Source: a virus
Taxonomy: Duplodnaviria > Heunggongvirae > Uroviricota > Caudoviricetes
DNA length: 64,000 bases
Reading direction: 5' to 3' (one strand)
Virus record (IMG/VR): IMGVR_UViG_3300011399_000001
Span: 1 to 64,000 of that record
Under the pieces are notes generated by a model. It saw only the letters and a list, made by a program, of their open reading frames with translations, was not told the DNA's origin and did not search any database. Shown one piece after another: positions 4,685 to 36,975 of this stretch. Both the position numbers and the translations under genes were made by a program. Each line of letters opens with the position of its first letter. Positions within the stretch are counted from its first letter, which is position 1.

Positions 4685-4702
4685 CTTACTTAGGGTTTAG
4701 AT

Positions 4703-8105: not shown

Positions 8106-8284
8106 ATTATTAGTTAGTTGTTAATGTTAATAAGAGAGAAAGGCGGTTTTCACCTAGCTTTCGGTAAGCAGGCCCAACACCACTTGTAGCCTAAGTCTAT
8201 TCTTCTCTCTTAACTCTTTAATGTCAAAAAGAGAACACTCTAGCTGTAATAGGCTAATATACAACCACTAGAATGTCTCTTTTT

Positions 8285-10110: not shown

Positions 10111-10380
10111 TTAATTTTTAGCAATATGCTTCTTCAACCATTTGATTCTAGGCTTAATATCCCCTCTTCTCCAATAATACCTATTTTTCATATGAATTAG
10201 AGCATCAAAGCTTGAAATAGGAGAAGGTCTATTGTCTTTGATATAATTAATTAATATTATTTCTTCAATTATATTAATTGATCCATTCCATAATAATTGA
10301 TAAGTCCAGCTACATAAGCCTGTTCTGAATAAATTTTCATTATCAATCATTAGCTGTAATAGTTCTTTTATTGTTCTCAT
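10111..10380 (-). CDS. hypothetical protein (89 aa)
   Basis: ORF track. Confidence 0.4.
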   Translation of the reverse strand: MRTIKELLQLMIDNENLFRTGLCSWTYQLLWNGSINIIEEIILINYIKDNRPSPISSFDALIHMKNRYYWRRGDIKPRIKWLKKHIAKN

Positions 10381-10387
10381 ATCATGT

Positions 10388-10567
10388 TTAATTAATTAAT
10401 AGGAACTTTTCTGTTACAATTTCATAATCTATTCCTGTTTCTGTAGAATAGAAGAAATATATAACTTGATTTAAAACAACCAAATATCCGTAAATACCAT
10501 CAATTTCAATATATCTGGGATCATTTATAATATATTGATAACCTGAGTTTTTATGTTGTATAACCAT
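10388..10567 (-). CDS. hypothetical small protein (59 aa; below the track cutoff)
   Basis: My own translation gives MVIQHKNSGYQYIINDPRYIEIDGIYGYLVVLNQVIYFFYSTETGIDYEIVTEKFLLIN; it fills an intergenic gap. Confidence 0.3.
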   Translation of the reverse strand: MVIQHKNSGYQYIINDPRYIEIDGIYGYLVVLNQVIYFFYSTETGIDYEIVTEKFLLIN

Positions 10568-10579
10568 ATTATATGAGAT

Positions 10580-10726
10580 TTAAACTCTCCTAGCCATATT
10601 AAATGCTGATACAACACCTGTCACTTTAAACTCCTCTTTAACAGGCTTTTTGCCTCGTTTAACAGGTATTGGTGGGCCAAAGTTAGCCTTCCCAAACTTC
10701 TGAATTAGTTTTGTTCTATTATCCAT
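10580..10726 (-). CDS. hypothetical small basic protein (48 aa; below the track cutoff)
   Basis: My own translation gives MDNRTKLIQKFGKANFGPPIPVKRGKKPVKEEFKVTGVVSAFNMARRV. Confidence 0.3.
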   Translation of the reverse strand: MDNRTKLIQKFGKANFGPPIPVKRGKKPVKEEFKVTGVVSAFNMARRV

Positions 10727-10731
10727 AATGA

Positions 10732-11082
10732 TTAGATTAAGAGTTTACATACATAAGCCTCAACATAGCCTGTTGATACTCTCCTCACTAATGGCTCAAT
10801 TACACCAGCTTTTAACAAAGCTTGATATATTCCCTCATTTTCAGACCAATTCTTAATGAATACATGTCCTTCTTCTATTGACTCATCGGGCAAATTAACT
10901 GTAGCTGTAGCAATAGGTTGATAATCTTGCAAATCATACAATTGAAGAGCTATTCGCCCTTTTGTAGCATAATTGGTCTTTTTAATACCATAGCTCCATT
11001 GCTTAAATTGAATAATATTAGTCTTTGTCATAAGAAATGCATTTAATGCTATAAATTCAACAAAAAGATTAAAATAAACCAA
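10732..11082 (-). CDS. hypothetical protein (116 aa)
   Basis: ORF track. Confidence 0.45.
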   Translation of the reverse strand: MVYFNLFVEFIALNAFLMTKTNIIQFKQWSYGIKKTNYATKGRIALQLYDLQDYQPIATATVNLPDESIEEGHVFIKNWSENEGIYQALLKAGVIEPLVRRVSTGYVEAYVCKLLI

Positions 11083-11282
11083 CTATCCAAATACTCCTAT
11101 TAGAAGGTAATATTTATCATTTGAGGTATTGTCCTTACTGAAGGGAACAATATAATCTCAAACTATGGAAATATACACTATATTTGTGCATACTTGTCAC
11201 TGGAGTCAGTGTTGTAAAGGAGCCATTACTATCACTATTTCCAACTATTCATTGGTGTAATATATAATGGCTCCACATTGTC

Positions 11283-11528
11283 TTATCCTGTTAATACTTC
11301 TAATTTGATAGTGTTTAAGTAAAATCCCTTATACAGACATTCTTCTGCTGTATTAGAGGGAATTGTACCCTCGAACTCCTCTCTTGTAATAGTAGGCTGT
11401 TTACGCATAATATCTACCACTTGAGAATTTTTCTCAATTGATGCTATTTTAGGCTGCTGTCCAGCCATATGCATAAATATATCTTTATCAGATATAAATG
11501 CTCTTAATGAATCCATTTTATAATACAT
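11283..11528 (-). CDS. hypothetical protein (81 aa)
   Basis: ORF track. Confidence 0.4.
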   Translation of the reverse strand: MYYKMDSLRAFISDKDIFMHMAGQQPKIASIEKNSQVVDIMRKQPTITREEFEGTIPSNTAEECLYKGFYLNTIKLEVLTG

Positions 11529-13579: not shown

Positions 13580-13654
13580 AGGGTATTGGAGGAGCTTGCA
13601 GTCCTCGCCTCCCTTGGACGGAGGAGAACATAGGTTGAAATCCTATATACCCTA
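13580..13654 (+). tRNA. tRNA-Pro(TGG)
   Basis: Manual cloverleaf: acceptor AGGGTAT/ATACCCT, D-stem GAGG/CCTC, anticodon stem CCTCC/GGAGG with loop CTTGGAC, T-loop TTGAAAT. Confidence 0.7.
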
Positions 13655-13656
13655 CT

Positions 13657-13727
13657 TTCAATATAGTATAAGGAATGTACGCAAGATTTTGAATCTTGAG
13701 GTTTGGGATTGTGACCCAATATTGAAA
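13657..13727 (+). tRNA. tRNA-Gln(TTG)
   Basis: Acceptor TTCAATA/TATTGAA, anticodon stem CAAGA/TCTTG with loop TTTTGAA; short D-stem. Confidence 0.6.
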
Positions 13728-13729
13728 CT

Positions 13730-13803
13730 GTGTTTGTAGCTTAGTGGCTTAAAGCCTTTGATTGTGGTTCAAAGTATCGTGGGTTCGAATCCCATCAAAC
13801 ACC
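13730..13803 (+). tRNA. tRNA-His(GTG)
   Basis: Acceptor GTGTTTG/CAAACAC, anticodon loop TTGTGGT, T-loop TTCGAAT. Confidence 0.65.
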
Positions 13804-13807
13804 TGTT

Positions 13808-13879
13808 CTTCTTATAGTTCAATGAATAGAACACCTCACTACGGATGAGGAAATTGAGGTTTGACCCCTTATAAGAAGA
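13808..13879 (+). tRNA. tRNA-Arg(ACG)
   Basis: Perfect acceptor CTTCTTA/TAAGAAG, D-stem GTTC/GAAC, anticodon stem CCTCA/TGAGG with loop CTACGGA. Confidence 0.65.
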
Positions 13880-13884
13880 CACAT

Positions 13885-13967
13885 GCACTTATGGTGGAAT
13901 GGTAGACACGCTTGCCTTAGGAGCAAGTGCCTGAAAGGGTGTATAGGTTCGAGTCCTATTAAGTGTA
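13885..13967 (+). tRNA. tRNA-Leu(TAG), class II
   Basis: Acceptor GCACTTA/TAAGTGT (one G-U), anticodon stem CTTGC/GCAAG with loop CTTAGGA, long variable arm, T-loop TTCGAGT. Confidence 0.7.
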
Positions 13968-13972
13968 CATAT

Positions 13973-14057
13973 GCAGGTATGGCGAAATTGGTAGACGCAT
14001 CAGACTTAAAATCTGACGGGCATTATGCTCATAGAGGTTCGACTCCTCTTACCTGCA
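13973..14057 (+). tRNA. tRNA-Leu(TAA), class II
   Basis: Perfect acceptor GCAGGTA/TACCTGC, anticodon stem TCAGA/TCTGA with loop CTTAAAA, long variable arm, T-loop TTCGACT. Confidence 0.7.
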
Positions 14058-14062
14058 CATAA

Positions 14063-14149
14063 GGAGGGTTGGCTGGAGATGGATTATCGCACTAGTCTTG
14101 AAAACTAGAGGACAGAAATGTTCCGTGAGTTCGAATCTCACACCCTCTT
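14063..14149 (+). tRNA. tRNA-Ser(TGA), class II
   Basis: Acceptor GGAGGGT/ACCCTCT, anticodon stem CTAGT/ACTAG with loop CTTGAAA, long variable arm, T-arm GTGAG-TTCGAAT-CTCAC. Confidence 0.65.
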
Positions 14150-14152
14150 CAC

Positions 14153-14237
14153 AGAGAGCTGGCAGAGTGGTTTATTGCATTTGGTTGCTAACTAAAAGGG
14201 CTTAACAGCTCCAGGGGTTCGAACCCCTTGCTCTCTT
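14153..14237 (+). tRNA. tRNA-Ser(GCT), class II
   Basis: Perfect acceptor AGAGAGC/GCTCTCT, anticodon stem TTTGG/CTAAA with loop TTGCTAA, long variable arm, T-loop TTCGAAC. Confidence 0.65.
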
Positions 14238-14243
14238 CATTTT

Positions 14244-14326
14244 GGTATGGATGGTAAATTGGCTAAATCAGCAGACTGTAAATCTGTCGCCATTAGGCTA
14301 TGTAGGTTCGATTCCTACCCATACCA
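14244..14326 (+). tRNA. tRNA-Tyr(GTA), class II
   Basis: Perfect acceptor GGTATGG/CCATACC, anticodon loop CTGTAAA, long variable arm, T-arm GTAGG-TTCGATT-CCTAC. Confidence 0.7.
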
Positions 14327-14370
14327 CGAAAATAAATCATTTAAAATTTGGAATATTCGAATATATTCCC

Positions 14371-14378
14371 TACTTTTG
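14371..14378 (+). promoter_or_regulatory. TAnnTTTG element (TACTTTTGTATTATG) inside the tRNA array, directly before a 25-codon mini-ORF
   Basis: Near-identical to the motif at 13245-13259 (CCCTAYYTTTGTATTATGA). Confidence 0.4.
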
Positions 14379-14382
14379 TATT

Positions 14383-14460
14383 ATGAAACTGAAAAACGAT
14401 GATATTATAATGGCTAAAGAAGAGGATGAGGAGCTTACACTCCTGTCGTCTAGAAGTTAG
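14383..14460 (+). CDS. mini-ORF of 25 aa (MKLKNDDIIMAKEEDEELTLLSSRS)
   Basis: ATG 5 nt after the conserved promoter motif; it is the only part of track ORF 14242..14460 that does not overlap tRNA-Tyr; coding status uncertain. Confidence 0.25.
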   Translation: MKLKNDDIIMAKEEDEELTLLSSRS

Positions 14461-14641
14461 GACATTACACTTTCAATGTAAAAAAGAGGGAGCATTACCC
14501 TTCAGGAGTACACAAAAATAGAATCATGAAAAGGAATTGGTTTAATATTATGTTCACCTCATTTACTACAAGAGATTGTGGTAAGGCGGGAATATATTGT
14601 TGGAGCCAATAACTAATAAAGTTATAATCAAATTGATTAAG

Positions 14642-14667
14642 GGCTCCATAACAATGGGGCCTTTTTT
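14642..14667 (+). terminator. rho-independent terminator (GGCTCCAT-AACA-ATGGGGCC plus TTTTTT)
   Basis: Seen directly; closes the small transcription unit embedded in the tRNA array. Confidence 0.55.
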
Positions 14668-14673
14668 ATTTAT

Positions 14674-14746
14674 GGGGCATTGGTGAAGATGGCTATCACA
14701 CCTGATTTGCATTCAGGAGTCATGGGTTCGAAGCCCATAAGTTTCC
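14674..14746 (+). tRNA. tRNA-Ala(TGC)-like element whose acceptor stem does not pair (possible pseudo-tRNA)
   Basis: Canonical D-arm GTGA/TCAC, anticodon stem CCTGA/TCAGG with loop TTTGCAT and T-arm ATGGG-TTCGAAG-CCCAT. The 5' GGGGCAT has no complementary 3' strand; the 3' side reads AAGTTTC. Confidence 0.35.
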
Positions 14747-14752
14747 ACATAA

Positions 14753-14824
14753 CGAGGGTGTAGTGTAATGGCTGCATATCACACTGTCACTGTGAAGGTA
14801 GGAGTTCGAACCTCCCATTCTCGG
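14753..14824 (+). tRNA. tRNA-Asp(GTC)
   Basis: Acceptor CGAGGGT/ATTCTCG (two G-U), anticodon stem TCACA/TGTGA with loop CTGTCAC, T-loop TTCGAAC; D-arm slightly irregular. Confidence 0.5.
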
Positions 14825-14829
14825 CATAA

Positions 14830-14900
14830 GGGTTGTTAGCCTAGTGGTCAGGCAGTAGACTGTTAATCTACCTACGGGTGTTCAATTCACTCACTTCCCT
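14830..14900 (+). tRNA. tRNA-Asn(GTT)
   Basis: D-arm GCCT-AGTGGTC-AGGC, anticodon stem GTAGA/TCTAC with loop CTGTTAA, T-loop TTCAATT; acceptor GGGTTGT/ACTTCCC has two U-U mismatches. Confidence 0.5.
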
Positions 14901-14905
14901 CACAC

Positions 14906-14978
14906 ACGTATATAACTCAATTGGTAGAGTAATAGTCTCCAAAACTGTAAGCTGGTGGTTCGACTCCATTTATACGTG
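14906..14978 (+). tRNA. tRNA-Trp(CCA)
   Basis: Perfect acceptor ACGTATA/TATACGT, anticodon loop CTCCAAA, T-loop TTCGACT. Confidence 0.65.
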
Positions 14979-14983
14979 CATAC

Positions 14984-15055
14984 TCCCTTGTGGCTCAATG
15001 GTACAGCAGCAGTTTTGTAAACTGCCATTTGTAAGTTCGAATCTTACCTGGGGAT
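14984..15055 (+). tRNA. tRNA-Thr(TGT)
   Basis: Anticodon stem GCAGT/ACTGC with loop TTTGTAA, T-arm GTAAG-TTCGAAT-CTTAC; acceptor TCCCTTG/CTGGGGA has one mismatch. Confidence 0.6.
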
Positions 15056-15063
15056 CATAGAAT

Positions 15064-15137
15064 TTCTCTGTAGCTCAATTGAATAGAGCGACAGCCTTCT
15101 AAGCTGTAGGTTGGAGGTTTGAACCCTCCCAGGGAAG
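15064..15137 (+). tRNA. tRNA-Arg(TCT)
   Basis: Acceptor TTCTCTG/CAGGGAA (one G-U), D-arm GCTC..GAGC, anticodon stem ACAGC/GCTGT with loop CTTCTAA, T-arm GGAGG-TTTGAAC-CCTCC. Confidence 0.65.
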
Positions 15138-15257
15138 CTTAAATAATAAAAATGGAAACAGATAAGCGACAGAGGCACATGCCTCTAAAGCATTAAGGTG
15201 ATGCTCTAGACTTTTAATCTAGAGAAGATGGGTCAGTACCATCTAGGGGTACTTTAT

Positions 15258-15329
15258 AGTAGGATAGCTCAATGGTGGAGCGCCACACTGATAATGTGGA
15301 GGTTATAGGTTCAACTCCTGTTCTTACTA
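15258..15329 (+). tRNA. tRNA-Ile(GAT)
   Basis: Acceptor AGTAGGA/TCTTACT, D-arm GCTC-AATGGTG-GAGC, anticodon stem CCACA/TGTGG with loop CTGATAA, T-loop TTCAACT. Confidence 0.7.
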
Positions 15330-15337
15330 CTTTATAT

Positions 15338-15408
15338 TGCGGGATAGATTAATGGTAGATCAAGGGGCTCATATCCCCTGCGTGGGGGTTCAACTCCCCC
15401 TCCCGCCA
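15338..15408 (+). tRNA. tRNA-Met(CAT) with initiator-like features
   Basis: Anticodon loop CTCATAT on an AGGGG/CCCCT stem (three consecutive G-C pairs); 1-72 position mismatched (T versus C); T-arm GGGGG-TTCAACT-CCCCC. Confidence 0.6.
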
Positions 15409-15412
15409 CTAT

Positions 15413-15485
15413 GGACTCTAAGCTAACCTAGTGAAAGCGCTGGACTGAAAATCCAGGGAGTTTGGAGCGTAACCAAAAGGGTCCA
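15413..15485 (+). tRNA. tRNA-Phe(GAA), atypical D- and T-loops
   Basis: Acceptor GGACTCT/AGGGTCC, anticodon stem CTGGA/TCCAG with loop CTGAAAA; D-loop lacks GG and T-loop is AGCGTAA. Confidence 0.45.
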
Positions 15486-15490
15486 CATAT

Positions 15491-15564
15491 GTATTAGTAG
15501 CTCCTAATGCCAGAGCGTCTGACTTCCAATCAGAAGGCTGTGGGTTCAAGTCCCACCTAGTACA
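15491..15564 (+). tRNA. tRNA-Gly(TCC)
   Basis: Acceptor GTATTAG/CTAGTAC, D-stem GCTC/GAGC, anticodon stem TCTGA/TCAGA with loop CTTCCAA, T-arm GTGGG-TTCAAGT-CCCAC. Confidence 0.65.
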
Positions 15565-15754
15565 CAATTTTTTCCTCCTCATTATCAGGCGGTTAGCCTG
15601 TATTTTCCTCTTTCCCTATTATTTTCATTAAAAATGTTGTACCTTTGCAGGGTGGTTGGGTGGGGTATGTATAACAGCTCCCGATATAGAAAAAAAGAAC
15701 GGGACAGAAAGAATGTATTAATTAGGGGATAGTGTGTCTAATAATGTAATATAA

Positions 15755-15835
15755 GTCAAGGTTCCAGAGTGGTTAAATGGACCTGTCTGCAAAACAGGTG
15801 AGAAATCTTCGGGTGTTCGAATCACCTCCTTGGCT
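15755..15835 (+). tRNA. tRNA-Cys(GCA)-like with an unusually long (about 12 nt) variable arm
   Basis: Acceptor GTCAAGG/CCTTGGC, anticodon stem CCTGT/ACAGG with loop CTGCAAA, T-arm GGGTG-TTCGAAT-CACCT; extra arm GAGAAATCTTC. Confidence 0.45.
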
Positions 15836-15848
15836 CTAAATAAAGGAT

Positions 15849-18109: not shown

Positions 18110-18422
18110 CTATGTATCAACAGAACTAGATTGGGCAGAAGAACAGCTTGCTACCTGGAGAGCTTATGTAGATGCCAACCCTTTAGACAAACTTAAAGAT
18201 AGGATTGAAAACAAACCAACCGCTAGAGGAGGTGTTATACCAATGGTGGTGTCTTCTATTGAACAGCAGGGAAAGTTTATACAGGATACAATGAAAAACT
18301 ATCTTTCTCTTTTAGAGATTGTTAACAATTTAAGAGAAAAAGAAGAGGCTAAGAAAGTAGAGATTAGGGGAAAAGGAGAGCTGTCAGGACAAGCTGCTAA
18401 TTTCTTAAATACTAGAAAATGA
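18090..18422 (+). CDS. candidate terminase small subunit (110 aa)
   Basis: Position only: ATGA overlap with the large terminase gene directly downstream; no motif. Confidence 0.35.
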   Translation: MAKKQNNYVSTELDWAEEQLATWRAYVDANPLDKLKDRIENKPTARGGVIPMVVSSIEQQGKFIQDTMKNYLSLLEIVNNLREKEEAKKVEIRGKGELSGQAANFLNTRK

Positions 18423-20464
18423 TAAAAGAACTAGCTGATTTAAAGGATGTTAAATCAATAGATTATAAGGATTGGTTAATAAATCAGAAAAGGCTTCCAG
18501 ATAAGACTTCTCAGGAATATGAAGCATTTTTTGAATTTCATAAAGAACTTTGTCTTAATGGAGCTATGGTTAATGGGGTGTACTTCAACCCCTTTTTGTA
18601 TTGGCACCTTAATATGTGGCATACAGAAGTGGATGTTATAGATGATAAGGGAAGAATAAGCCAACCATACAAAAACCCTCTTCTAAGAGATAATGAATGG
18701 ATAATTACAGAAGCCATAGAAAGAGCTCACAAGGAAAAGAAAGGACTTGCTATTGGTGGTATAAGGCGTTTAGCTAAATCAGTAATAGAAGCTTCATATA
18801 TAGGATGGGGAGCCACCCTTGACCAAAACTCACAGAATGTTATATCTGGTTTGAATGCAGCAGATATAAAACTTATCACTGATAAATTAGACAAAGGGCT
18901 AAACTTTGTCCCTGAATATTACAGATGGCAAAGGGTTGAAGATAATTGGAAAAATCAAGTAACCCTAGGAATAAAGACAAGAGCAGGAGAACGTATCCCA
19001 TTCTCCTACATCCTTATCAGGAACTTAGATGAGGGAAATAATGAAGAGGTTATTGCAGGAACAAAGCCAAGGAAACTAATTATAGATGAAGGAGGAAAAG
19101 GACCTTTTCTAGGAGGATTGAATGCTGCCAAGCCAGGTTTCACTACACCTTTTGGTTGGGCATGTTCTCCAATAGTTACATTTACAGGAGGAGATATGAC
19201 TAAGTTTCAGGATGCTAAAACTCTAATGTTTGATGTTGGAGCTTATAACTTCCTTGAATACAATAGTAAGGATGATACTAAGAGAGTGCATGGACTATTC
19301 TTTAGCCATAAGTATAGACTAGAGGGAAAGAAGGATTCTACACTAGGAGACTACCTTAATAGTCCAAACCCTGCATTAAAACAAATACCAATGCAAGTGA
19401 GCGATGAAGCACTTGCTACAAAGGTAACAGATGAGAATCTAATAATGGCTAAAAAGGCTGGAGATAGAAAAGCCTATTTAAAGGAAAAAATGTACTACCC
19501 TAAAACTGTAGATGACATTTTCCTTAATGAAAATACAAACATATTTGATATAGAGGCAGCTCAAAGACAGAAAGCTCGTCTTTTACAACAGGGAAGAACA
19601 GGTACTCCTGTTATTCTTTTTGCTTCAGAAACAGGAATTGGACATCAATTTACAGACAAGATGCCCATTTCCAATTTTCCATTAAAACCAAATGATGACA
19701 AGGATGCTCCTGTTGTCATATTAGAATTTCCAATAGCTGGTGCTATCTATGGACTTAATGTAGCAGGTGTTGACCCTTATAGGCAAGGAAAGGCTAAATA
19801 TAGTGATTCCTTAGGAGCCATATATATATACAAAAGAATGCATGACATTACTGGTGAGAAATACCAAGATATGTTTGTTGCTTATTATGTAGCTAGACCA
19901 GATGATAAAAAGAAATGGGAGGAACAAGCTAGACTCCTTATAAAATTCTATAATGCTCGTACCTTATGTGAAAATGATGATATATCATTTATAGAGCACA
20001 TGAAGGCTACCAATAATTCTCATTATTTAGAGAAACAACCTGATTGGTTAAAAGAAATAGTCCCTAACACAACTGTTAGTAGAGATTTTGGGGTACATCG
20101 TTCTTCTGACAAAATTGTAGACTTCTTACATGGTTGTTTAAAAAGATATACAGAAGAAATTATATTTGAAGAGAAGGATAAAGAGGGAAATGTTATTAGA
20201 CAGGTAACAGGAATGAGTAAAATTCTAGACCCTATGTTATTGGAGGAGATGATTCAATATAATGAGGATGGAAACTTTGATCGTATTGTAGCAGCAGAAC
20301 TTGCTTTAGCACAAGCCTATAAAATGGCCCCTATATATGGGAAGGCCACAGATAAACCAGATGATAGGGCTGCTTCTTTAGCAAAGAAACAAAAAGTAAA
20401 AAGTTTATTTCCCTCCCACAATCAGGGACTTTTTAAGAAATCAGAACGTAAATTATTCAGATAA
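18419..20464 (+). CDS. terL: terminase large subunit (681 aa)
   Basis: Walker A-like GGIRRLAKS, Walker B LIIDE, C-terminal RNaseH-like nuclease acidic residues (GVDPYRQG...); lies directly upstream of the portal with a TAATG overlap. Confidence 0.65.
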   Translation: MIKELADLKDVKSIDYKDWLINQKRLPDKTSQEYEAFFEFHKELCLNGAMVNGVYFNPFLYWHLNMWHTEVDVIDDKGRISQPYKNPLLRDNEWIITEAIERAHKEKKGLAIGGIRRLAKSVIEASYIGWGATLDQNSQNVISGLNAADIKLITDKLDKGLNFVPEYYRWQRVEDNWKNQVTLGIKTRAGERIPFSYILIRNLDEGNNEEVIAGTKPRKLIIDEGGKGPFLGGLNAAKPGFTTPFGWACSPIVTFTGGDMTKFQDAKTLMFDVGAYNFLEYNSKDDTKRVHGLFFSHKYRLEGKKDSTLGDYLNSPNPALKQIPMQVSDEALATKVTDENLIMAKKAGDRKAYLKEKMYYPKTVDDIFLNENTNIFDIEAAQRQKARLLQQGRTGTPVILFASETGIGHQFTDKMPISNFPLKPNDDKDAPVVILEFPIAGAIYGLNVAGVDPYRQGKAKYSDSLGAIYIYKRMHDITGEKYQDMFVAYYVARPDDKKKWEEQARLLIKFYNARTLCENDDISFIEHMKATNNSHYLEKQPDWLKEIVPNTTVSRDFGVHRSSDKIVDFLHGCLKRYTEEIIFEEKDKEGNVIRQVTGMSKILDPMLLEEMIQYNEDGNFDRIVAAELALAQAYKMAPIYGKATDKPDDRAASLAKKQKVKSLFPSHNQGLFKKSERKLFR

Positions 20465-23058
20465 TGGCTATTATTAGACATACAAAAGACGAAAATATAA
20501 GGTATGCTTATTTAAACATATTTCCAGATCAGTTTAAAACTGAGAAGGAGAAGCAAAATGATTCATGGGTGAAAAACACTATGGATTATTTTTCTAATAA
20601 AGCTTATGCTGAATATGTAAGAAATAGAGAAACTTTCGTTAAAAATTATGACCTTGTAAAAGGAATTTTAAGGAGAGAAGATTTTTATGAAGAACCTGCT
20701 GTAAAGAGTTTTACAGAGATGTTGACAGAAGACCTTGATCTTCCTGCATATGTAAAACATTATTCTATTATCACAACCCCCTTAAATGAGCTTGTAGGGG
20801 AAATATCTAAAAGACCAGATAATTATAAAATAAAAGCTTTTGATGATGACTCCAAATCTGAGGAGTTGGAATATAAGACACAAATTCTACAGGATTATAT
20901 AGTATCTGCTGCAAGACAGAAAATACAACAAAAACTAGCTTTACAAGGAGAAGAGATAACAGAAGAAGAACTTCAACAACTTACATTAGAAGAGGTAAAG
21001 GATGACCTTGATAGCTACACCTCTATAGCTGAAAAATGGGCCAATCACACTCTTACTTGTATAAAGGCAGACTTCAACCTTAAAGAAAAGAGTGAGGATG
21101 CCTTTAGAGATATGGGAATTACAGCAAGGGAATACTACCATATTTACGAGGATAATTCTAAGACAGGTTTTGATATAGAAGTATCCAACCCTAAGAATAC
21201 TTGGAAGCTTACTACCCCTGATAAGAAATATATATCAGACCCTTCAGGTAGAAGCAAAGGAGCTTATGCTGCTGGTACTGTGCATGTTATGGAGATTTCT
21301 GAAATTATAGAGGCTTGTTCAGATATTACAAAGGATGAAATTGATCACTTAAGACTAGCCCTTCAGGATTACGGACTTATCAATGTAAGGGAATCCAACC
21401 TTTTCAATGGCATTACCCCAGGGATTAATTCTATTACATATGACACCTATGACCCTTTAGTATTGCAGGAGAGAATGTTAATAGAAAGTGAGCTGAAGGA
21501 AAACAATGACTCTTTAAGAGATTTCCTTGGCCTCACTTCTAACGTTTCTGCTTTTGGGTATAAATATGTAGTGGTAAGGGCTTATTGGATAAGTAAGAAG
21601 AAAATAGGGAAAGTGACATATATAGATGAGCTTGGAAATGAGCAATCTATGTTAGTGGACGAAGATTATAAGGCAGGTACTATTCCTACAGAAATAGACC
21701 TAACTTGGGGATGGGTGAATCAATGGTATCAGGGAATGAAAATAGGACCAGACATCTACCATGTTAAACCTTTCAAATTACTAGACTATTGTCCTATTAT
21801 AGGGATGGACTATGAAATAAAAAATACAGAAGTTCGCTCTCTGGTGGATATGATGAAGCCTTTTCAGGTACTTTATAATGTCTGCATGAACCAAATGTTC
21901 GACCTTTTAAAGAAAGAAATAGGGAACGTAGCCACTATTAATATAAGAAGAATTCCTAGAGTGAAGGATGGAGATGCTCAGGATGATATTGATATATGGG
22001 AAATGGAGGCTAGAAACAGGGGTATTATGTTTGATGATGATAGTCCTGAAAATACCAAAGCTCCTGTCACCAACACCTCTGTAGCCAAGAATGTAGACCT
22101 TACAAGAACACAAGAAATGCAGGGACGCTATAATCTTGCTGTTCAGCTTAAAAACGAATGTTGGGAATTGATAGGAATGAGTAAACAAAGAATGGGAAGT
22201 GTATCTCCTTCAGAGTCTGCTACAGGAACCAATAATGCTGTACAAATGAGTTATTCTCAAACAGAACCAATGTTTGTAGCTCATGAATATGTATTAGGAC
22301 AACTATATCAGGCTATTATAGATGCTTCGCTTTATATAGAAAGTCAGAAGCCAGAATCCACCCTTTCTTATATCACCTCTCAGGGAGAATCTGCTTTTGT
22401 ACAGGTAAATGGAACTGACCTTAAATTAAGAGACCTTAAAGTGTTTCCTACCAACCGTCCTGAAGATAAGAAACTATTTGAAGAACTTAGACTGTTGGCT
22501 CAACCAGCTATGCAGAACGGAGCTTCATTATACGATATTGTAGAGCTTTATGCTACAGATAGTATTAGACAAATGAAGAAAACCTTCAAAGTCCTTAAAG
22601 ATAGACAGGAAGAGTTTCAAAACACTGCTCAACAACAAGAACAGCAACAACTTACTCAAAATGCTGAAATTGCCCAAGCTCAATTGGCTCAACAACAATA
22701 TGAGAAAGAGCAGGAATTGGCTCACGAAGACTATCAAAAAGAACTGGACCGTATTAATAAGAAGGAGATTGCCATCATCCAAAGCCTAGGTTTTGGTAAA
22801 GTGGAGGGAGAGGATACCAACCAGAACCAAATATTCGATGTTTTGGAAAGTAACAATCTTTCTTTTGAAAGAGACAAAGCCTCAAAGGACCATAATATCA
22901 AGCTTTTAGAGGTTCAAAATAAGAATAAGGCTGATGAAAGGAAGTTGAAATTAGATGAGGAAAAGCTTAAGGTGGAAAGAGAGAATATGGTTAACGACCT
23001 TCAAATTGCCAGAATAAACGCTAAGAATAAGAACAAGAAACCAGCTAAAAAGAAATAA
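20464..23058 (+). CDS. portal protein (864 aa) with a Q/K/E-rich C-terminal coiled-coil tail
   Basis: Size and position directly after terL with a translational-coupling overlap; C-terminal 150 aa are low-complexity QQQEQQQ.../K-rich. Confidence 0.6.
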   Translation: MAIIRHTKDENIRYAYLNIFPDQFKTEKEKQNDSWVKNTMDYFSNKAYAEYVRNRETFVKNYDLVKGILRREDFYEEPAVKSFTEMLTEDLDLPAYVKHYSIITTPLNELVGEISKRPDNYKIKAFDDDSKSEELEYKTQILQDYIVSAARQKIQQKLALQGEEITEEELQQLTLEEVKDDLDSYTSIAEKWANHTLTCIKADFNLKEKSEDAFRDMGITAREYYHIYEDNSKTGFDIEVSNPKNTWKLTTPDKKYISDPSGRSKGAYAAGTVHVMEISEIIEACSDITKDEIDHLRLALQDYGLINVRESNLFNGITPGINSITYDTYDPLVLQERMLIESELKENNDSLRDFLGLTSNVSAFGYKYVVVRAYWISKKKIGKVTYIDELGNEQSMLVDEDYKAGTIPTEIDLTWGWVNQWYQGMKIGPDIYHVKPFKLLDYCPIIGMDYEIKNTEVRSLVDMMKPFQVLYNVCMNQMFDLLKKEIGNVATINIRRIPRVKDGDAQDDIDIWEMEARNRGIMFDDDSPENTKAPVTNTSVAKNVDLTRTQEMQGRYNLAVQLKNECWELIGMSKQRMGSVSPSESATGTNNAVQMSYSQTEPMFVAHEYVLGQLYQAIIDASLYIESQKPESTLSYITSQGESAFVQVNGTDLKLRDLKVFPTNRPEDKKLFEELRLLAQPAMQNGASLYDIVELYATDSIRQMKKTFKVLKDRQEEFQNTAQQQEQQQLTQNAEIAQAQLAQQQYEKEQELAHEDYQKELDRINKKEIAIIQSLGFGKVEGEDTNQNQIFDVLESNNLSFERDKASKDHNIKLLEVQNKNKADERKLKLDEEKLKVERENMVNDLQIARINAKNKNKKPAKKK

Positions 23059-23059
23059 C

Positions 23060-23575
23060 ATGTTTGATAAACTGATAGATTTCTTAATTGACATTATAGA
23101 ACTCTTCAGGTTCTTTTGGGTTATTCGACAATGGGAAAGAGGTATTGTTTTAAGACTAGGGAAGTGGACAGGAAAGGTATTAGAGCCAGGACTACATTTC
23201 ATCTGGCCTCTGGCAATAGATGAGGTTAGTACAATAGACATCATTCCATCTGTTGCAGAACTGGATAGTCAGACAATTGTAACAAAGGACAAGGTGGTGG
23301 TGGTTGTACAAGCCTTAATTAAATATGAGGTGGTAAGACCTGAAATATGCCTAATAGAGGTGGCTAATGAAATAGACGCTGTAAAGGAGTTTACACAAGG
23401 AGCTATTCATAGTGTAATAGTCGATTTAGATTATTCCACTGCTAATGTCAAAGATATAGAGGCTAAGATAAAAGAGGTGGCCAGGAAAGAGGTTATTAAA
23501 TGGGGAATCAAAATTCATTCTGTTGTAATAAAGAGTTTTGGAAAAATGATTTCTGTAAGACTTATGAATAGTTAA
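23060..23575 (+). CDS. SPFH/band-7 domain protein (171 aa)
   Basis: RQWERGIVLRLGK...LEPGLHFIWPLAIDEV...TKDKVVVVVQALIKYEVV...WGIKIHSVVIKS follows the SPFH (stomatin/prohibitin/HflKC) domain consensus. Confidence 0.6.
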   Translation: MFDKLIDFLIDIIELFRFFWVIRQWERGIVLRLGKWTGKVLEPGLHFIWPLAIDEVSTIDIIPSVAELDSQTIVTKDKVVVVVQALIKYEVVRPEICLIEVANEIDAVKEFTQGAIHSVIVDLDYSTANVKDIEAKIKEVARKEVIKWGIKIHSVVIKSFGKMISVRLMNS

Positions 23576-23670
23576 CAAAATTCATTAAGTAAAATCAATC
23601 TTAATGCTATATTATTCTAAAAAACCAAGGTTTTCATACGAATTCTCTTCGTTATTAACTTAAAACATTC

Positions 23671-23678
23671 TAATTTTG
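23671..23678 (+). promoter_or_regulatory. TAnnTTTG element (TAATTTTGTATTA) 29 nt upstream of the scaffold-like gene
   Basis: Recurring motif. Confidence 0.4.
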
Positions 23679-23707
23679 TATTAAATACCAACGAAAAAAA
23701 CTACATT

Positions 23708-24916
23708 ATGGCTGAAAAAGACAATCCTTTTGGGAACTTTAGCATTGACAATGCTGAAATGAACTCTGGAAACCAAGAATTATTAACTAGCTTCTTAGAT
23801 GATACTGCTCCTGAAGAAATAGTACCTATTACCTCCAAGGAAACTACAAAGAAACCTGAAGAGAAGAAAAAGGCTCCTATTGTTAAAAAGGACGAAGAAG
23901 AAGACCTCACCAAGAGGTCTATTGAAGAATTAGATATTCACGAGGAGGAGGAGGAGGAGGAAGAACCTCTTAAAAAACCTGTTAAAAAAGACGAGGAATC
24001 AGAAGAGGAGGAAGAGGAGGAAGACCCTAAAAAAGCTTCTACATTTGCTGTTATAAGCAAAGAACTCTTTAATCATGGAATCTTTACAAAGGACGAAGAA
24101 GAGGAAGATGTTGAAATCAACACTCCTGAGGACTTTTTGGAAAGGTTTAATTATGAGAAGAAAAAAGGAGCACAAATCATGGTGGAGAATTACATCTCTA
24201 GATTTGGACCTGATTATCAACAAGCTTTTCAAGCCATATTTGAAAATGGAGTGCCTCCAAGAGAATACTTGGCAAGTTATACAAAAATTGAAAATTTAGC
24301 AGAAATCGACCTTACACAAGAAGCTAATCAGATTGCTGTTATTAAACAAGGACTTGCAGAACAAGGATATGAAGAGGACGACATCACCACAGAACTAGAG
24401 AGACTTAAAAACTATCAAGACCTTGAGAAAGTAGCTAAAACCCATCATAAGGTGTTAGTGAAAAAAGAGGGGGATAAATTAGTCAAACTTGAAGAGGAGA
24501 GTCAAAACAAACAAAGACAATTAGCAGCTTCCAGACAACAATACATTAAAAATGTCCAAGCTGTATTACAAGAAAAACTAAAAACGAAGGATTTTGACGG
24601 AATTCCTGTAAATCAGGGACTTTTGGCAGAAACACAAAACTTCCTATTACAGGAAAAATACAAAACTCCAGCAGGGGAAACTTTAACAGATTTTGATAAA
24701 TTTGTTTTAGACCTTAAACGTCCAGAGAATCATGTGTTGAAAGTGAAGGTTGGTCTGCTGTTTAAAATCCTAGAAAAAGACCCTACCCTTTCAACAATTA
24801 AGAAAGCAGGTCTGACACAGAAATCAAATGGTTTATTTGAAGAGTTGGCTAGAAAAACCTCAAAAAGTTCTAACAAATCAGAAAAATCATCTAGTAGATC
24901 ATTCAATAATTTATAA
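23708..24916 (+). CDS. acidic scaffold-like protein with poly-Glu tracts (402 aa)
   Basis: EEEEEEEE runs and coiled-coil K/E-rich sequence; sits between the portal and the candidate capsid gene. Confidence 0.5.
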   Translation: MAEKDNPFGNFSIDNAEMNSGNQELLTSFLDDTAPEEIVPITSKETTKKPEEKKKAPIVKKDEEEDLTKRSIEELDIHEEEEEEEEPLKKPVKKDEESEEEEEEEDPKKASTFAVISKELFNHGIFTKDEEEEDVEINTPEDFLERFNYEKKKGAQIMVENYISRFGPDYQQAFQAIFENGVPPREYLASYTKIENLAEIDLTQEANQIAVIKQGLAEQGYEEDDITTELERLKNYQDLEKVAKTHHKVLVKKEGDKLVKLEEESQNKQRQLAASRQQYIKNVQAVLQEKLKTKDFDGIPVNQGLLAETQNFLLQEKYKTPAGETLTDFDKFVLDLKRPENHVLKVKVGLLFKILEKDPTLSTIKKAGLTQKSNGLFEELARKTSKSSNKSEKSSSRSFNNL

Positions 24917-24936: not shown

Positions 24937-26490
24937 ATGGCAATTCAAACAATCCCAGGTCTAACTGGTTTTACCTACGCTAGGGTAGCTTCAATGGATA
25001 AACGTGCAGTGGGTAAACTCACTGACTCTAACCACTTAGAGAGCTTTCACTCTACAGAGCCTGCTGATTATGATAAGAAAATCATAAGCTTATACACACA
25101 GAGCTCATTGTATAGCAACGACTTTTTGGATATGATTAACAAATCTATTCCTTACTACATTGATAACAACAGTGATAGCTGGAAGTGGGATGTTAATGTT
25201 CCATATAAGTTTCCTAAAATCATTGCTATTCCAACTTCAACATCTGATAATACAAAGCCAGGTATTGATGGACAAGAATTCCAATTAGTATTGGACACTG
25301 CGGAATTCTCTAAAAACGCGATTCTTTCAATAGGAGATCGTAGATATGGTCCTCAAGTTTCTGTAGCAAAAGACCCTCTTCCTTGGAATTCAGGTTTCTT
25401 GTATACATTTACATTGGTGACAGACAATCCTATGGTGGACTTTGTAAGCCCTACTTATTTAAAGGTGGGAATCGAGGTTCAGTTGATTAGTGCGTCTATT
25501 GGGGAATTTGACCAAGACCTTTTAGGATTGCCACGTTTAGGAGAGAAGATTACAATGTTCGAATCTCTTGGAAGTGCATTTGGTTATGAGCACACTATCA
25601 CAAAATGGGCAGATGAAAAAATGCTTCGTAATGCTGATGGACAAGCTTTGGATATTCTGGTATATGCTCCTTCTCGTAGAAATCAAATGCCTCTTAAACG
25701 TAATGATGTACGTTGGGAGCCATTCATTGAGTTCTGGATGAGAAAATCAATGCTTGAATTGAAGGTGAACAAGTTCATCTGGGGTAAAGCAGGTACAGTG
25801 AAAACTAATGGCTCCAAGCAAGAATTGAAGCGTCTTTCTGATGGTGTATACCAAAGAATGCGTAACAACGGAAACTTGGTACAATATAACAGAGGTGAAT
25901 TCTCTGCCAATTTAATACGTGCAGTCTTCGGAGATTTGTTCTATCGTAGGGTGGATGTTAAAGACAGACGTGTAAAAATGTACACTAATGAGGCAGGTTT
26001 TGATACCTTCCAGCAAGCTCTGAAGGATGATGCTCTGAATTCAGGTTTAACACTGGTTGCTGATAGTGGTGAACGTTATATCCAAGGTGCAGGTCAACAT
26101 CTAACATACAATTGGGCGTTTGATTCAATGGTGACAAGGGAAACTGGACGTGTAGACTTAGTACACTTAAAAGAGCTAGACCTTCCTCAAACAAACCTTG
26201 AATTTGGTCAGAATAAGAAAAGCACACCTGTATTCTTCGTATTTGATGTGTCTCCTTCTAGTGATGGAAGTTTGACAAACAATATTCGTGAAGTACGTAT
26301 GAAGGGAGCCCCTTCTATGACATGGGGATATATTGATGGACGTCAATCTCACTTAGGACACTTTGCTTCTAAGGGAATGCAATCAGCCAACAAATTCCCA
26401 GGCTATACATTGTGGATGGAAGACAGATGTGATATTTTCATTGAAGACCTTTCTCGCACAGTTCTCATAGAAGAGATACCTCAGTTCTAA
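24937..26490 (+). CDS. candidate major capsid protein (517 aa)
   Basis: Position after portal/scaffold, size, high-expression codon usage and a very strong terminator immediately downstream; no fold-level check was possible. Confidence 0.5.
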   Translation: MAIQTIPGLTGFTYARVASMDKRAVGKLTDSNHLESFHSTEPADYDKKIISLYTQSSLYSNDFLDMINKSIPYYIDNNSDSWKWDVNVPYKFPKIIAIPTSTSDNTKPGIDGQEFQLVLDTAEFSKNAILSIGDRRYGPQVSVAKDPLPWNSGFLYTFTLVTDNPMVDFVSPTYLKVGIEVQLISASIGEFDQDLLGLPRLGEKITMFESLGSAFGYEHTITKWADEKMLRNADGQALDILVYAPSRRNQMPLKRNDVRWEPFIEFWMRKSMLELKVNKFIWGKAGTVKTNGSKQELKRLSDGVYQRMRNNGNLVQYNRGEFSANLIRAVFGDLFYRRVDVKDRRVKMYTNEAGFDTFQQALKDDALNSGLTLVADSGERYIQGAGQHLTYNWAFDSMVTRETGRVDLVHLKELDLPQTNLEFGQNKKSTPVFFVFDVSPSSDGSLTNNIREVRMKGAPSMTWGYIDGRQSHLGHFASKGMQSANKFPGYTLWMEDRCDIFIEDLSRTVLIEEIPQF

Positions 26491-32163: not shown

Positions 32164-33381
32164 ATGGCTATAAATGACGAACAATTAGAATCCCTTAAAG
32201 GGATGTTAGGTTGGAAAAAATCAAAATCCTTATATGCCACCAAATTAGGGGTGACATTAAATGAACTAGAAGGATTATTAGAAGAACTTAGAAATCAGGA
32301 AAAACACGAAACTTTGGAAGAATTAGACCAATTTGAAAGAAAAGTGAATGTTGAAAAAGGAATCATAGAAAGTGATGTTATTGTGGACTTTGAACCTAAA
32401 ACAATAGAAGAGCTTGCAAAATTACATAAAATTGATTTAAATAAATACAAAATATCTACCTATTGGAGCAAGTTAAAATCTAATGGGAAATTCACTTCCT
32501 CTGTGTTAGCATCCCTTAAAAGACCAACAGATTATACATTAGAAGACTTTACAAAGTTTTTAAAGGATTATAAAATTGAAAAACACCCATGTACTTGTAA
32601 ACCCTTGATAAACAAGGGATTAGAAACAGTAGATGTTGAATTAAATATTGCAGATTTTCACTTAGCCAAGAAAACTTTCGAAGGTGATAATTTAGCCTCT
32701 AAAGAGCTTGACTATTTCTTTACAGTGAATGACTTAGTGGGTAAGATTAAAAGGAATTACAATATTGGTAAACTGGTATTTCCAATAAGTAACGATTTCT
32801 TTCACACAGACAACTATCAAAATTCAACTACAAATGGTACTCCACAAGATGTAACAGCTTGGTATGATGAGGAATATGAGAAAGGATTTGATATATTGGC
32901 TAATACTATTAATTTTCTGGTTACACAGGCTAAGGAAGTGGAGGTTATATTAGTACAAGGAAACCATGACCGCACTAAAGGATTTTTTGTAGCACATGCT
33001 TTAGAAGTGTTTTTTAAAGGATACAAAAACATCAAGTTTCAAAGAGAACATTCTGTTACAAAATCTGTAGTATTAGGGAATACGTTTATAGGCTACCATC
33101 ATGGAAACAGTTGTAAATTAACAGACCTTCCATTAATATTTGCTACAGGAAAAGATGCCTCTAATTTTGGTAATGCTAAATATAGAGAAATTCATACAGG
33201 TGATAAACATCACTATATGGCTAAGGAAGTACAAGGAGTAAGAATCCAACAAATGCCTTCCCTCTCTAAAACTGATAGATGGCATAGAGATAATAATTTT
33301 GAAAATAAAGTACACGCTGCACTAGCTCTTGTCTACCATCCTGAACAAGGTAAGATATGTGAGTTTGAGGTTCGTTTGTAA
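32164..33381 (+). CDS. calcineurin-like metallophosphoesterase (405 aa), Mre11/SbcD-like motif order
   Basis: DFH (motif I), NDFFHTD (motif II-like), VQGNHD (motif III GNHD), GYHHGN, HTGDKHH. Confidence 0.5.
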   Translation: MAINDEQLESLKGMLGWKKSKSLYATKLGVTLNELEGLLEELRNQEKHETLEELDQFERKVNVEKGIIESDVIVDFEPKTIEELAKLHKIDLNKYKISTYWSKLKSNGKFTSSVLASLKRPTDYTLEDFTKFLKDYKIEKHPCTCKPLINKGLETVDVELNIADFHLAKKTFEGDNLASKELDYFFTVNDLVGKIKRNYNIGKLVFPISNDFFHTDNYQNSTTNGTPQDVTAWYDEEYEKGFDILANTINFLVTQAKEVEVILVQGNHDRTKGFFVAHALEVFFKGYKNIKFQREHSVTKSVVLGNTFIGYHHGNSCKLTDLPLIFATGKDASNFGNAKYREIHTGDKHHYMAKEVQGVRIQQMPSLSKTDRWHRDNNFENKVHAALALVYHPEQGKICEFEVRL

Positions 33382-33383
33382 TT

Positions 33384-34007
33384 ATGTACTATCTCTACAG
33401 ACATATAAGATTAGATAAAAATGAACCTTTTTACATAGGTATTGGTAAAGTTAATTTAAATAATGAGTATTCTATAGATTCTGAAAAATACAGAAGAGCT
33501 TATAGTAAAATAAATAGAACTTTATATTGGACAAACATAGCTAATTTAACTCCTTATGAAATTGAAGTATTATTCGAAACTGATAATAGAGAAGAAATAG
33601 TACAAAAAGAGAAAGAATTCATAAAACTATATGGTAGAAAAGATTTAAACTTAGGTTCTTTAGTTAATATGACAGATGGAGGAGAAGGAAAAGAAGGGAT
33701 AAAATTATCAGAAAGTACCAAAACTAAAATGTCTATTTCTGCAAAGAAAAATATAAATGCAGAAAGAAAACAACAATTAGTATATCAATTAAATAGAAAT
33801 CATTCTACTAAGGGTAAGTTTGGAAAAGACCATTGTAACTCTATAAAAGTATATCAATACGATCTAGAAGGAAATTTTATTAAAAAGTGGAACAGTTTGA
33901 TGGATATTAAAAGAGAATTAGGGTATGAATTATCACATATTTCTCAATGTATAAATAACAAGAGAAATAAGACCAAAGGGTTTAAATGGTCTAAAGAACG
34001 ATTATAA
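33384..34007 (+). CDS. GIY-YIG homing endonuclease (207 aa)
   Basis: N-terminal YYLYRHIRLDKNEPFYIGIG (GIY...YIG); basic C-terminal DNA-binding region. Confidence 0.7.
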   Translation: MYYLYRHIRLDKNEPFYIGIGKVNLNNEYSIDSEKYRRAYSKINRTLYWTNIANLTPYEIEVLFETDNREEIVQKEKEFIKLYGRKDLNLGSLVNMTDGGEGKEGIKLSESTKTKMSISAKKNINAERKQQLVYQLNRNHSTKGKFGKDHCNSIKVYQYDLEGNFIKKWNSLMDIKRELGYELSHISQCINNKRNKTKGFKWSKERL

Positions 34008-36040: not shown

Positions 36041-36975
36041 GCTATTACTATAAATATAATTTTATCTCTCCCGAAGGAGTATATGCAGTTGTGGCAGAAG
36101 AATTGAAGTCGTATTTAGATACTGGTGCGGTTGATCAATTACTTTGGCCAACATATTTAAACAAGTGTCTAGACAAGCTTGGAAAAGGAACATATTACAT
36201 TACAGAAGATATTTTAAACATTGAAGATTTTGTAGCAAGACTTCCTGATAACTTCTATGCTGTTAGAGAAGCTTGGCTTTGTACAGAAATATCAGGATTT
36301 CCATATCAAGCAGCTAATTCATTTTATTCTCAGGCTGCCTCTGAAAGTACAATACAGGTTTCTCCTGTTATTTCTGGAGGTACTCCATGTACAAATACAG
36401 AATGTACTAATGATAATTGTGATGGAGCAGAATGTATGCCTGTGTTAATACAAGCTGTATACAAAACTAATAATGAAATTAATGTAACTTATAAAAGAAC
36501 GTACCTCTTAAAACCAGGGAATATTTCTGTAAAAGGACATTGTGCTTTAGATTGTAAGAATTTTGGAGCTTCTTCCCCTGATAGCTTTGATATAAGGGAT
36601 AATAAATTTGTCACTAATTTCAGATGTGGAAAGGTGCATTTAGTGTTCTATGCCACAGAATATGACAAAAGTGAAAATCAGCTTATTCCTGATAATTATA
36701 GAATTAAAGAATATATAGAAGCTTTCATTAAATATAAAGTATTTGAAACTTTATGTAATCAAGTAAATGATGAAACGTTTAACCAGCTTCTACAGAAACT
36801 ACAATATTACAAGCAATTATGTGACGAAGCCTATATATTAGCAGATACAGAGATAAAGAAGCAGGATGCTTATACTAAATTCAGAAGAATACAACAGAAC
36901 CTAAATAGTCTTAATAGATACGAACTCCCAGAAGGTAGAGTTAGACGTATTTTTAGAAGAAACGGTACAAATTAA
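36037..36975 (+). CDS. tail/baseplate protein, unknown function (312 aa)
   Basis: ORF track; 4-nt overlap with the upstream gene. Confidence 0.5.
   Translation: MSYYYKYNFISPEGVYAVVAEELKSYLDTGAVDQLLWPTYLNKCLDKLGKGTYYITEDILNIEDFVARLPDNFYAVREAWLCTEISGFPYQAANSFYSQAASESTIQVSPVISGGTPCTNTECTNDNCDGAECMPVLIQAVYKTNNEINVTYKRTYLLKPGNISVKGHCALDCKNFGASSPDSFDIRDNKFVTNFRCGKVHLVFYATEYDKSENQLIPDNYRIKEYIEAFIKYKVFETLCNQVNDETFNQLLQKLQYYKQLCDEAYILADTEIKKQDAYTKFRRIQQNLNSLNRYELPEGRVRRIFRRNGTN

Follow-up and report, generated by a model that had tools for sequence, protein, structure and literature searches.

A minimal SPFH protein of environmental crAss-like phages, encoded by a probable accessory gene between the portal gene and a conserved intergenic block

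The window, the 64,000-nucleotide stretch of viral DNA that was analyzed as a whole, is a portion of a crAss-like phage genome, as judged from its gene content. Its proteins match PF23898, PF24228, PF25702, and PF00216, and the genes are in the HU/IHF–TerL–portal arrangement, with an HU/IHF-like gene upstream of the gene for the large terminase subunit (TerL). The window encodes crAss tail ring proteins 1 and 2. No near-identical phage genome was found in the deposited collection (megablast, 12 kb). The gene under study is located at positions 23060–23575, and the features at the locus are as follows.

18419–20464, plus strand: terminase large subunit, the first large gene of the TerL–portal–SPFH run (phrog_6681, E 4.1e-74)
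20464–23058, plus strand: portal gene (phrog_6547, E 2.2e-93)
23060–23575, plus strand: minimal SPFH/Band-7 gene, ATG to TAA, 171 aa, 19.6 kDa, pI 5.95
23060–23119, plus strand: residues 1–20, conserved acidic amphipathic helix, MFDKLIDFLIDIIELFRFFW, in place of the slipin transmembrane anchor
23120–23545, plus strand: residues 21–162, SPFH core composed of a beta-sheet and helices 94–148, from the Pfam, model, and Foldseek alignments
23552–23563, plus strand: residues 165–168, C-terminal SVRL, corresponding to the family-wide [RK]S[LI]RL motif, from alignments
23576–23707, plus strand: conserved intergenic block that closes the cargo slot on the right; relatives have it ahead of the p402 homologue whatever the slot contains
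23708–24916, plus strand: p402, 402-aa acidic protein, putative scaffold by position and composition only
24937–26490, plus strand: crAss-type major capsid protein (PF23898, E 4.2e-27; phrog_11589, E 1.8e-33)

A single nucleotide separates the portal TAA from the SPFH ATG (AAATAAcATG), and the major capsid protein gene is the second gene downstream of the SPFH gene. The preliminary description had placed the SPFH gene between a portal and a scaffold gene. The portal upstream and the capsid protein downstream are confirmed by profile matches, but the term scaffold reflects only the position of p402 and its acidic composition (pI 4.83, with a poly-Glu tract). The p402 protein has no matches in Pfam, PHROG, or the PDB, and the literature on p402 or the scaffold, and on the distant relative Leptolyngbya phage Lbo-JY46, contained nothing usable. 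A homologue of p402 precedes the capsid gene in all relatives.

The intergenic block between the SPFH and p402 genes contains the 15-mer TTAATGCTATATTAT at 23601–23615, the box TAATTTTG at 23671–23678, and AACTACAT at 23699–23706, which is followed by the ATG of the next gene. The order of TTAATGCTATATTAT, a TAnnTTTG-like box, and AACTACAT-ATG is retained across the relatives. In nearly all of them (L001, L031–L110), the 15-mer precedes the p402 homologue by approximately 100 nt. It occurs only once in the window, and its interpretation as a repeated promoter motif was rejected. Scans for sigma-70 promoters and terminators around the SPFH gene found nothing, and a Bacteroidota-type promoter pattern is weakly enriched, with seven occurrences against 3.3 expected.

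The 171-residue product of the gene is a genuine SPFH/Band-7 protein. It matches the Pfam Band_7 profile PF01145, the search proposed for verifying this identity, with a score of 69 bits against the curated cut-off of 23.6 (E 6.7e-19), and the alignment covers residues 21–158 of the protein and positions 2–143 of the 176 in the profile. The profile of the short-SPFH family described below matches human stomatin (E 4e-35), Escherichia coli QmcA (E 2e-29), and HflK (E 5e-22). The structure predicted by AlphaFold2 (AF2), with a pLDDT of 87.6 and a pTM of 0.73, is composed of an N-terminal helix (residues 2–15) followed by the SPFH sheet and helices. Foldseek aligned the model to stomatin with an E value of 1.5e-14 and a TMq of 0.79, and the remaining matches are all SPFH proteins: HflK/C, QmcA, prohibitin, erlin, flotillin, and major vault protein. 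The SPFH assignment made in the preliminary description is thus upheld by both sequence and fold, and so is its statement that a protease motif is missing. No protease family or fold was found for the protein, as Pfam returned only Band_7, PHROGs only phrog_200, and the fold searches only SPFH proteins. Similarity to phrog_200 is low (E 5.4e-5) and limited to residues 18–94. The protein, whose N-terminus reads MFDKLIDF, contains no signal peptide or lipobox, and an exact-sequence look-up returned no identical copy on record. It is the only SPFH open reading frame within the window. No NfeD was found among the approximately 40 window reading frames scanned with Pfam, and the whole 64-kb window contains no ClpP, HExxH, or NfeD homologue.

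The two ends of the protein differ from those of cellular slipins. The N-terminus, for which a transmembrane helix had been considered, is not a transmembrane anchor: residues 1–20 form an acidic amphipathic helix with a hydrophobic moment of 0.51 and a KD19 of 1.55, whereas slipins have moments of about 0.1 and KD values of 2.3–2.8. Six charged residues are located within positions 1–22, and the best 19-residue segment of the protein has a Hessa-scale sum of +8.9 kcal/mol, compared to −3.9 to +0.6 in slipins. None of the 149 short-SPFH family representatives has a Hessa sum below zero. The cellular slipins aligned to residues 1–20 carry a plain hydrophobic helix. An acidic amphipathic helix is of an unusual type for binding to anionic bacterial membranes. 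At the C-terminus, the SVRL segment aligns with the first turn of the stomatin coiled-coil helix, and the protein stops three residues later. The reported absence of a C-terminal coiled coil therefore holds, and cellular slipins run for 70–120 residues beyond this point.

When 1.8 billion cluster representatives were searched with a profile, 386 were assigned to a short-SPFH family at E ≤ 1e-30; the family and its criteria were defined in the present analysis. Among the best 150 of the 386 matches, nearly all are 166–197 residues long and aligned end to end, and a membrane-insertion segment is predicted in none. The N-terminus of the family has the logo M[FL]D[RK]L[IV][DE][LF][LI], and the C-terminal motif [RK]S[LI]RL is likewise conserved. 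The window protein, itself the first row of profile A2, falls within the family as defined by a length of 166–197 aa, a start of M[FL]D[RK]L[IV][DE], an SPFH core, and an [RK]S[LI]RL end, and so do the best 150 of the matches. Another member is A0A6J7WFI0 from an uncultured phage, a 173-aa protein named 'HflK' in UniProt (TM 0.84 and 0.83). This delineates a large and conserved phage-borne family that is made up of only the SPFH core and an acidic amphipathic N-terminus.

No cultured phage with a short-family gene was found, including when two other lineages of the family were used as queries, and the sole match in that search was the metagenomic podovirus MW202733. A tblastn search of the window protein against deposited phages matched only 'Acinetobacter phage MD-2021a', which was discarded as a phage relative, as the match is to a bacterial NfeD-YbbK operon amid housekeeping genes. 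The records of that name (L030; CAKLQH020000002.1, 180689–191105) contain the ordinary bacterial chromosome genes NfeD-YbbK, ispA, ampG, and aroP, and by this gene content they look mislabelled or contaminated.

Comparison of the window gene with that of L001 gave a pN of 0.139 and a pS of 0.731 (pN/pS approximately 0.19). The dN/dS of the SPFH gene is approximately 0.06–0.11, comparable to those of the portal and capsid genes. These ratios indicate that the SPFH gene is under purifying selection. The product is a working minimal SPFH protein, with a stomatin/QmcA-like core, an acidic amphipathic helix in place of the anchor, and no coiled-coil wall or cap.

SPFH proteins are ring-formers, and the cellular ones pair with NfeD or with FtsH proteases (structures 8z5g and 7wi3 are among the fold matches). 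To our knowledge, all SPFH proteins studied to date are membrane-anchored and form closed coiled-coil cages that corral proteases or channels. The slipins, represented by human stomatin, E. coli QmcA, and Pyrococcus PH1511, are the nearest to the window protein in sequence and fold (Foldseek TMq 0.73–0.80). They are approximately 250–310 aa long and have an anchor or hairpin, a coiled-coil wall, a C-terminal cap, and an NfeD partner, whereas the window protein is 171 aa long, phage-encoded, and has none of these. Given that no export signal was found, its topology would be cytoplasmic, as in QmcA and stomatin. HflK and HflC resemble the window protein in the SPFH core (profile E 5e-22 to HflK), but they contain an N-terminal transmembrane helix, are periplasmic, close the 24-mer FtsH cage with long coiled coils, and occur as a K/C pair, all of which the window protein lacks. 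A head-maturation protease of the ClpP type has the same genomic position in one relative (L031); however, its fold is unrelated, the SPFH protein has no catalytic residues, and the SPFH gene is dispensable. The window protein thus belongs to the SPFH superfamily but fails the defining features of slipins, of HflK/C, and of head-maturation proteases.

SPFH proteins annotated in other viruses, namely the T4-like phages RB43, 44RR, and Aeh1, the 'SPFH lipoprotein' of Vi01-like phages (phrog_200), Rhizobium phage Pasto, Streptomyces phage StarPlatinum, pandoraviruses, and mimivirus relatives, are likewise without an assigned function. Most of them, at 260–500 aa, have a coiled coil together with a lipobox or an anchor in the membrane, unlike the window protein, and a portal-adjacent slot has been described for none of them. 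An SPFH-like domain was reported in a gut Crassvirales genus in a recent preprint. Our literature search found annotation-level mentions only, with no function for any phage SPFH protein and no link between SPFH proteins and phage defence. The PADLOC defence models gave no match.

The surroundings of the gene were compared among 80 viral contigs with portals 69–78% identical to that of the window, and the slot was delimited as the segment from the portal stop codon to the p402 homologue. The slot is empty (98–142 bp) in 38 of the 80 relatives, contains a short SPFH gene in 30, and carries other cargo in 12. The cargo is bounded in every case by the portal stop codon and the conserved intergenic block. 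The other cargo includes homing endonucleases of the GIY-YIG and HNH types, a glycosyltransferase-like gene, and several small open reading frames. The closest portal relative, L031 (78%), has a ClpP-family protease in the slot (7602–8324; PF00574, E 5.5e-22), which matches head-maturation proteases in PHROG and whose Ser, His, and Asp residues correspond to those of the triad in E. coli ClpP, so that the triad is intact. No other relative of the 80 has a ClpP gene in this position, and SPFH and ClpP were never seen together in one slot. Five loci, L034 (7614–8018), L032, L058, L059, and L066, have in the slot an HExxH-motif protein of approximately 134 aa (phrog_1365). This HExxH family comprises 127 homologues, all annotated as 'hypothetical', with invariant H81, E82, H85, N88, N102, and D103. 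The AF2 model of the protein has a pLDDT of 90.8 and no significant fold match in the PDB (best E 0.047), and the protein may represent a new small metal-binding fold.

Where the SPFH gene is present, its position is nearly constant. In 32 of the 33 crAss-slot SPFH loci, the stop codon of the portal gene and the SPFH ATG are −1 to +5 nt apart. The slot of L111 contains three genes, encoding an 83-aa protein, the SPFH protein, and a 96-aa protein, so that portal and SPFH are separated by another gene. No member of the portal subclade to which the window belongs has an empty slot. Among the 80 of 164 SPFH loci that were kept, for which only the flanks are visible, no SPFH gene was found elsewhere in relatives with an empty slot. 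Lbo-JY46, the only deposited relative by capsid protein, has the order TerL, portal, a 407-aa gene, and capsid, with no SPFH gene between them. The structural module of the window contains further mobile or accessory genes, which suggest that insertions are common in this region. A GIY-YIG homing endonuclease is encoded at 46426–47184 on the plus strand (phrog_314, E 1e-18). The same strand encodes a second homing-endonuclease-like protein, with a NUMOD1 domain, at 33384–34007 and, between tail genes, an exonuclease for DNA repair at 32164–33381 (phrog_704, E 1.8e-52).

At least three lineages of SPFH genes, with mutual identities of 21–36%, occupy the slot, while the flanking portals are approximately 70% identical and the capsids approximately 83%. 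The window type was also found in L001 (79% identity) and L111 (64%). It is 31–36% identical to the common 176-aa type and 21–29% to a 175-aa type, and the start next to the portal stop is shared by all three lineages. The 176-aa type is 53–58% identical to SPFH genes of the unrelated phages L005, L006, and L009. The states of the slot are interleaved on the portal tree, which points to repeated gain, loss, and replacement. The trees were built by neighbor joining only from sequences of low identity, and their branching order is provisional; the pairwise identities are independent of the tree.

Short SPFH genes are not confined to this slot. The genes adjoining them in unrelated phages, some on jumbo-sized contigs, are varied and non-structural, and include those for a calcineurin-like phosphoesterase, an RNase H-like exonuclease, a pyrimidine-dimer (DenV-like) glycosylase, a Mom homologue, a clamp loader, and an OmpA/PD40 protein. 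The short SPFH gene follows the lysozyme and lysis cassette at the end of the late operon in L114, is surrounded by early genes in L115, and lies beside envelope-related genes in L020 and L012. It is flanked by a ribonucleotide reductase module and a packaging module in L113, where a large unannotated gene, possibly a terminase, and a portal gene are located four genes downstream. The gene of the metagenomic podovirus MW202733 directly follows TerL. At this locus (L208; MW202733.1, 5001–5543), the deposited coding sequence for a 'prohibitin-like protein' begins at an internal ATG at locus position 5130, whereas the homology to the family starts at 5001, so that the annotation clips the conserved N-terminal helix. 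No conserved partner gene was detected at the BLAST level beside the short SPFH genes of unrelated phages, and no NfeD gene adjoins them. Locus L002 encodes two SPFH proteins 1.5 kb apart, a short anchorless one (8001–8525, 174 aa) and a long Band_7 protein (10043–11287, 414 aa). The latter has a hydrophobic N-terminus and a C-terminal helix rich in Gln, Glu, and Ala, and is of the anchored coiled-coil type. The short and long proteins could form a two-component pair.

These comparisons bear on two statements of the preliminary description. The slot had been regarded as the usual place of head-maturation proteases, and the ClpP of L031 is one piece of evidence in favor of this. The reading of the slot as a conserved morphogenetic position filled by SPFH is not supported, in view of the 38 empty slots, the 12 slots with unrelated cargo, the uninterrupted gene order of Lbo-JY46, and the family members that lie amid non-structural genes in unrelated phages. 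The slot is not a conserved morphogenetic position. It is a hypervariable site where the TerL–portal run of an environmental crAss-like clade has its 3' end, and the SPFH gene is one of its optional cargoes. The distribution of slot contents and the sequence identities indicate that the SPFH gene is dispensable among close relatives and has been exchanged between phage lineages. The locus resembles morons and other operon-end cargo in its position between the end of a conserved gene and an intergenic block, its variable presence, its xenologous alleles, and the homing endonucleases nearby. It is unlike random moron cargo in that three lineages of a single protein family have come to occupy it.

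The variability of the slot, the purifying selection, and the large size of the family together point to a dispensable, exchangeable accessory gene. It is very probable that the gene is accessory, and neither a conserved morphogenetic component nor a protease. The functions suggested in the preliminary description, namely a membrane tether, modulation of FtsH, or a virion component, stay candidates, and the dispensability of the gene argues against an essential role in assembly or in the virion. Expression of the SPFH gene would depend on read-through from the portal gene or on translational coupling to it, so that the product would be made late. The protein would stay in the cytoplasm and self-associate through the SPFH domain. 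It may act at the host membrane, on its inner face, or on host SPFH–protease assemblies of the FtsH–HflK/C or QmcA–YbbJ type. There, as a subunit that lacks the cap or terminates the chain, it might change the quality control of membrane proteins or the organization of the envelope to the benefit of the phage. The acidic character of the N-terminal helix counts against such a membrane or proteostasis mechanism, which we regard as possible but rather doubtful. The chances of the accessory role and this mechanism taken in combination are about even. If the protein indeed acts on host SPFH–protease cages, it would be a new phage takeover factor and a natural tool for opening or poisoning the cages. 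A purely position-independent accessory role leaves the repeated arrival of SPFH lineages at the portal stop unexplained, and the lack of empty slots in the subclade of the window likewise counts against it. Exchange of cassettes via the conserved flanks explains the spread within the clade, but not the repeated arrival of the same kind of gene.

The recurrence at the portal stop would be accounted for by a portal-linked assembly helper, a ring or platform made together with the portal that nucleates or positions the portal or procapsid, perhaps at the membrane, and is useful but non-essential. The T4 portal is served in such a manner by gp40 during T4 assembly. The start of the gene next to the portal stop in all but one of the crAss-slot loci and in all three lineages, and the repeated capture of the same kind of gene, favor such a helper. 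So do the head-maturation-type ClpP in the same position in L031, the SPFH genes directly after TerL in MW202733 and near the portal and possible terminase in L113, and the rings formed by the SPFH proteins among the PDB matches. However, nearly half of the relatives have an empty slot, Lbo-JY46 lacks the gene, another gene intervenes in L111, and many family members are located amid replication or early genes. Furthermore, the coiled coil that forms the rings is absent, and the homing endonucleases and the glycosyltransferase-like gene point to a permissive insertion site, which makes a helper of this kind decidedly unlikely. In a more specific form, the SPFH protein would be a dedicated partner of the portal, a cap-less ring produced in step with it that templates or tethers the portal dodecamer or the initiation of the procapsid. 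This form, which we consider improbable, would explain why three independent SPFH lineages were fixed and translationally joined to the portal in one crAss-like clade. The protein would then be the first of the SPFH class to take part in building a virus, and the first functional one that is soluble and of the SPFH-core type.

The patchy presence of the gene on the portal tree, the deeply divergent alleles at one locus, and the alternative cargo are also what would be expected of an arms-race locus carrying a conflict gene, which would act in superinfection exclusion or counter-defence at the membrane. The strong purifying selection on each type, the position after the lysis cassette in L114, and the envelope-related neighbors in L020 and L012 are in line with this. 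Conversely, the protein matches no known defence or anti-defence family in PADLOC, the literature provides no SPFH–defence link, and the protein has neither a signal peptide nor a transmembrane segment that would bring it to the site where incoming phage DNA crosses the membrane. A conflict gene is thus unlikely. The occurrence of ClpP in the same slot, the pairing of cellular SPFH proteins with NfeD or FtsH proteases, and the coupling of the SPFH gene in L118 to a gene for the HExxH protein, itself an alternative cargo of the slot, would suit a stand-in for, or a regulator of, the head-maturation protease. The SPFH stop overlaps the start of the HExxH homologue (approximately 4510–4884) in L118, but such adjacency was found at none of the ten other HExxH loci, and the HExxH protein has no detectable protease fold. 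In addition, the SPFH protein has no protease fold or motif, the window contains no ClpP, HExxH, or NfeD homologue, SPFH and ClpP never share the slot, and most relatives have neither gene; a stand-in or regulator is very improbable. A general proteolysis theme for the slot, uniting ClpP, HExxH, and SPFH, was rejected in view of the best PDB match of the HExxH protein (E 0.047) and the SPFH adjacency in L118 alone. The SPFH protein as the head-maturation protease itself is largely refuted, since it has no protease fold or catalytic residues and the slot holds ClpP in only one relative. The truncation at both ends relative to cellular slipins might suggest a decaying, functionless remnant of a captured slipin. 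This is refuted by the pN/pS and dN/dS ratios, which are like those of the portal and capsid genes, and by the hundreds of full-length members with conserved N- and C-terminal motifs, and we give it almost no credence.

A practical point for annotation is that a morphogenetic role cannot be deduced from a place between portal and scaffold genes. The locus neatly illustrates a fixed-position cargo slot in environmental crAss-like phages.

Several other features of the window were observed. A giant open reading frame of 3,794 aa (49925–61309, plus strand) has no Pfam or PHROG match at E ≤ 0.001, and a neighboring 1,580-aa reading frame (36975–41717) matches virion structural protein families (phrog_37948, E 2e-101). 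Of two reading frames in the leftward gene block, at 9253–9741 and 8285–8821 on the minus strand, one contains a Rieske [2Fe-2S] domain (E 6e-6) and one is weakly similar to protein kinases or phosphotransferases. An array of 21 tRNA genes that covers most amino acids is located at 13580–15836 on the plus strand, and a separate tRNA-Met gene at 1012–1085 on the minus strand. The array marks the point at which the leftward gene block gives way to the rightward one and the GC skew reverses in sign. A tRNA array is likewise positioned upstream of the TerL gene in Lbo-JY46.
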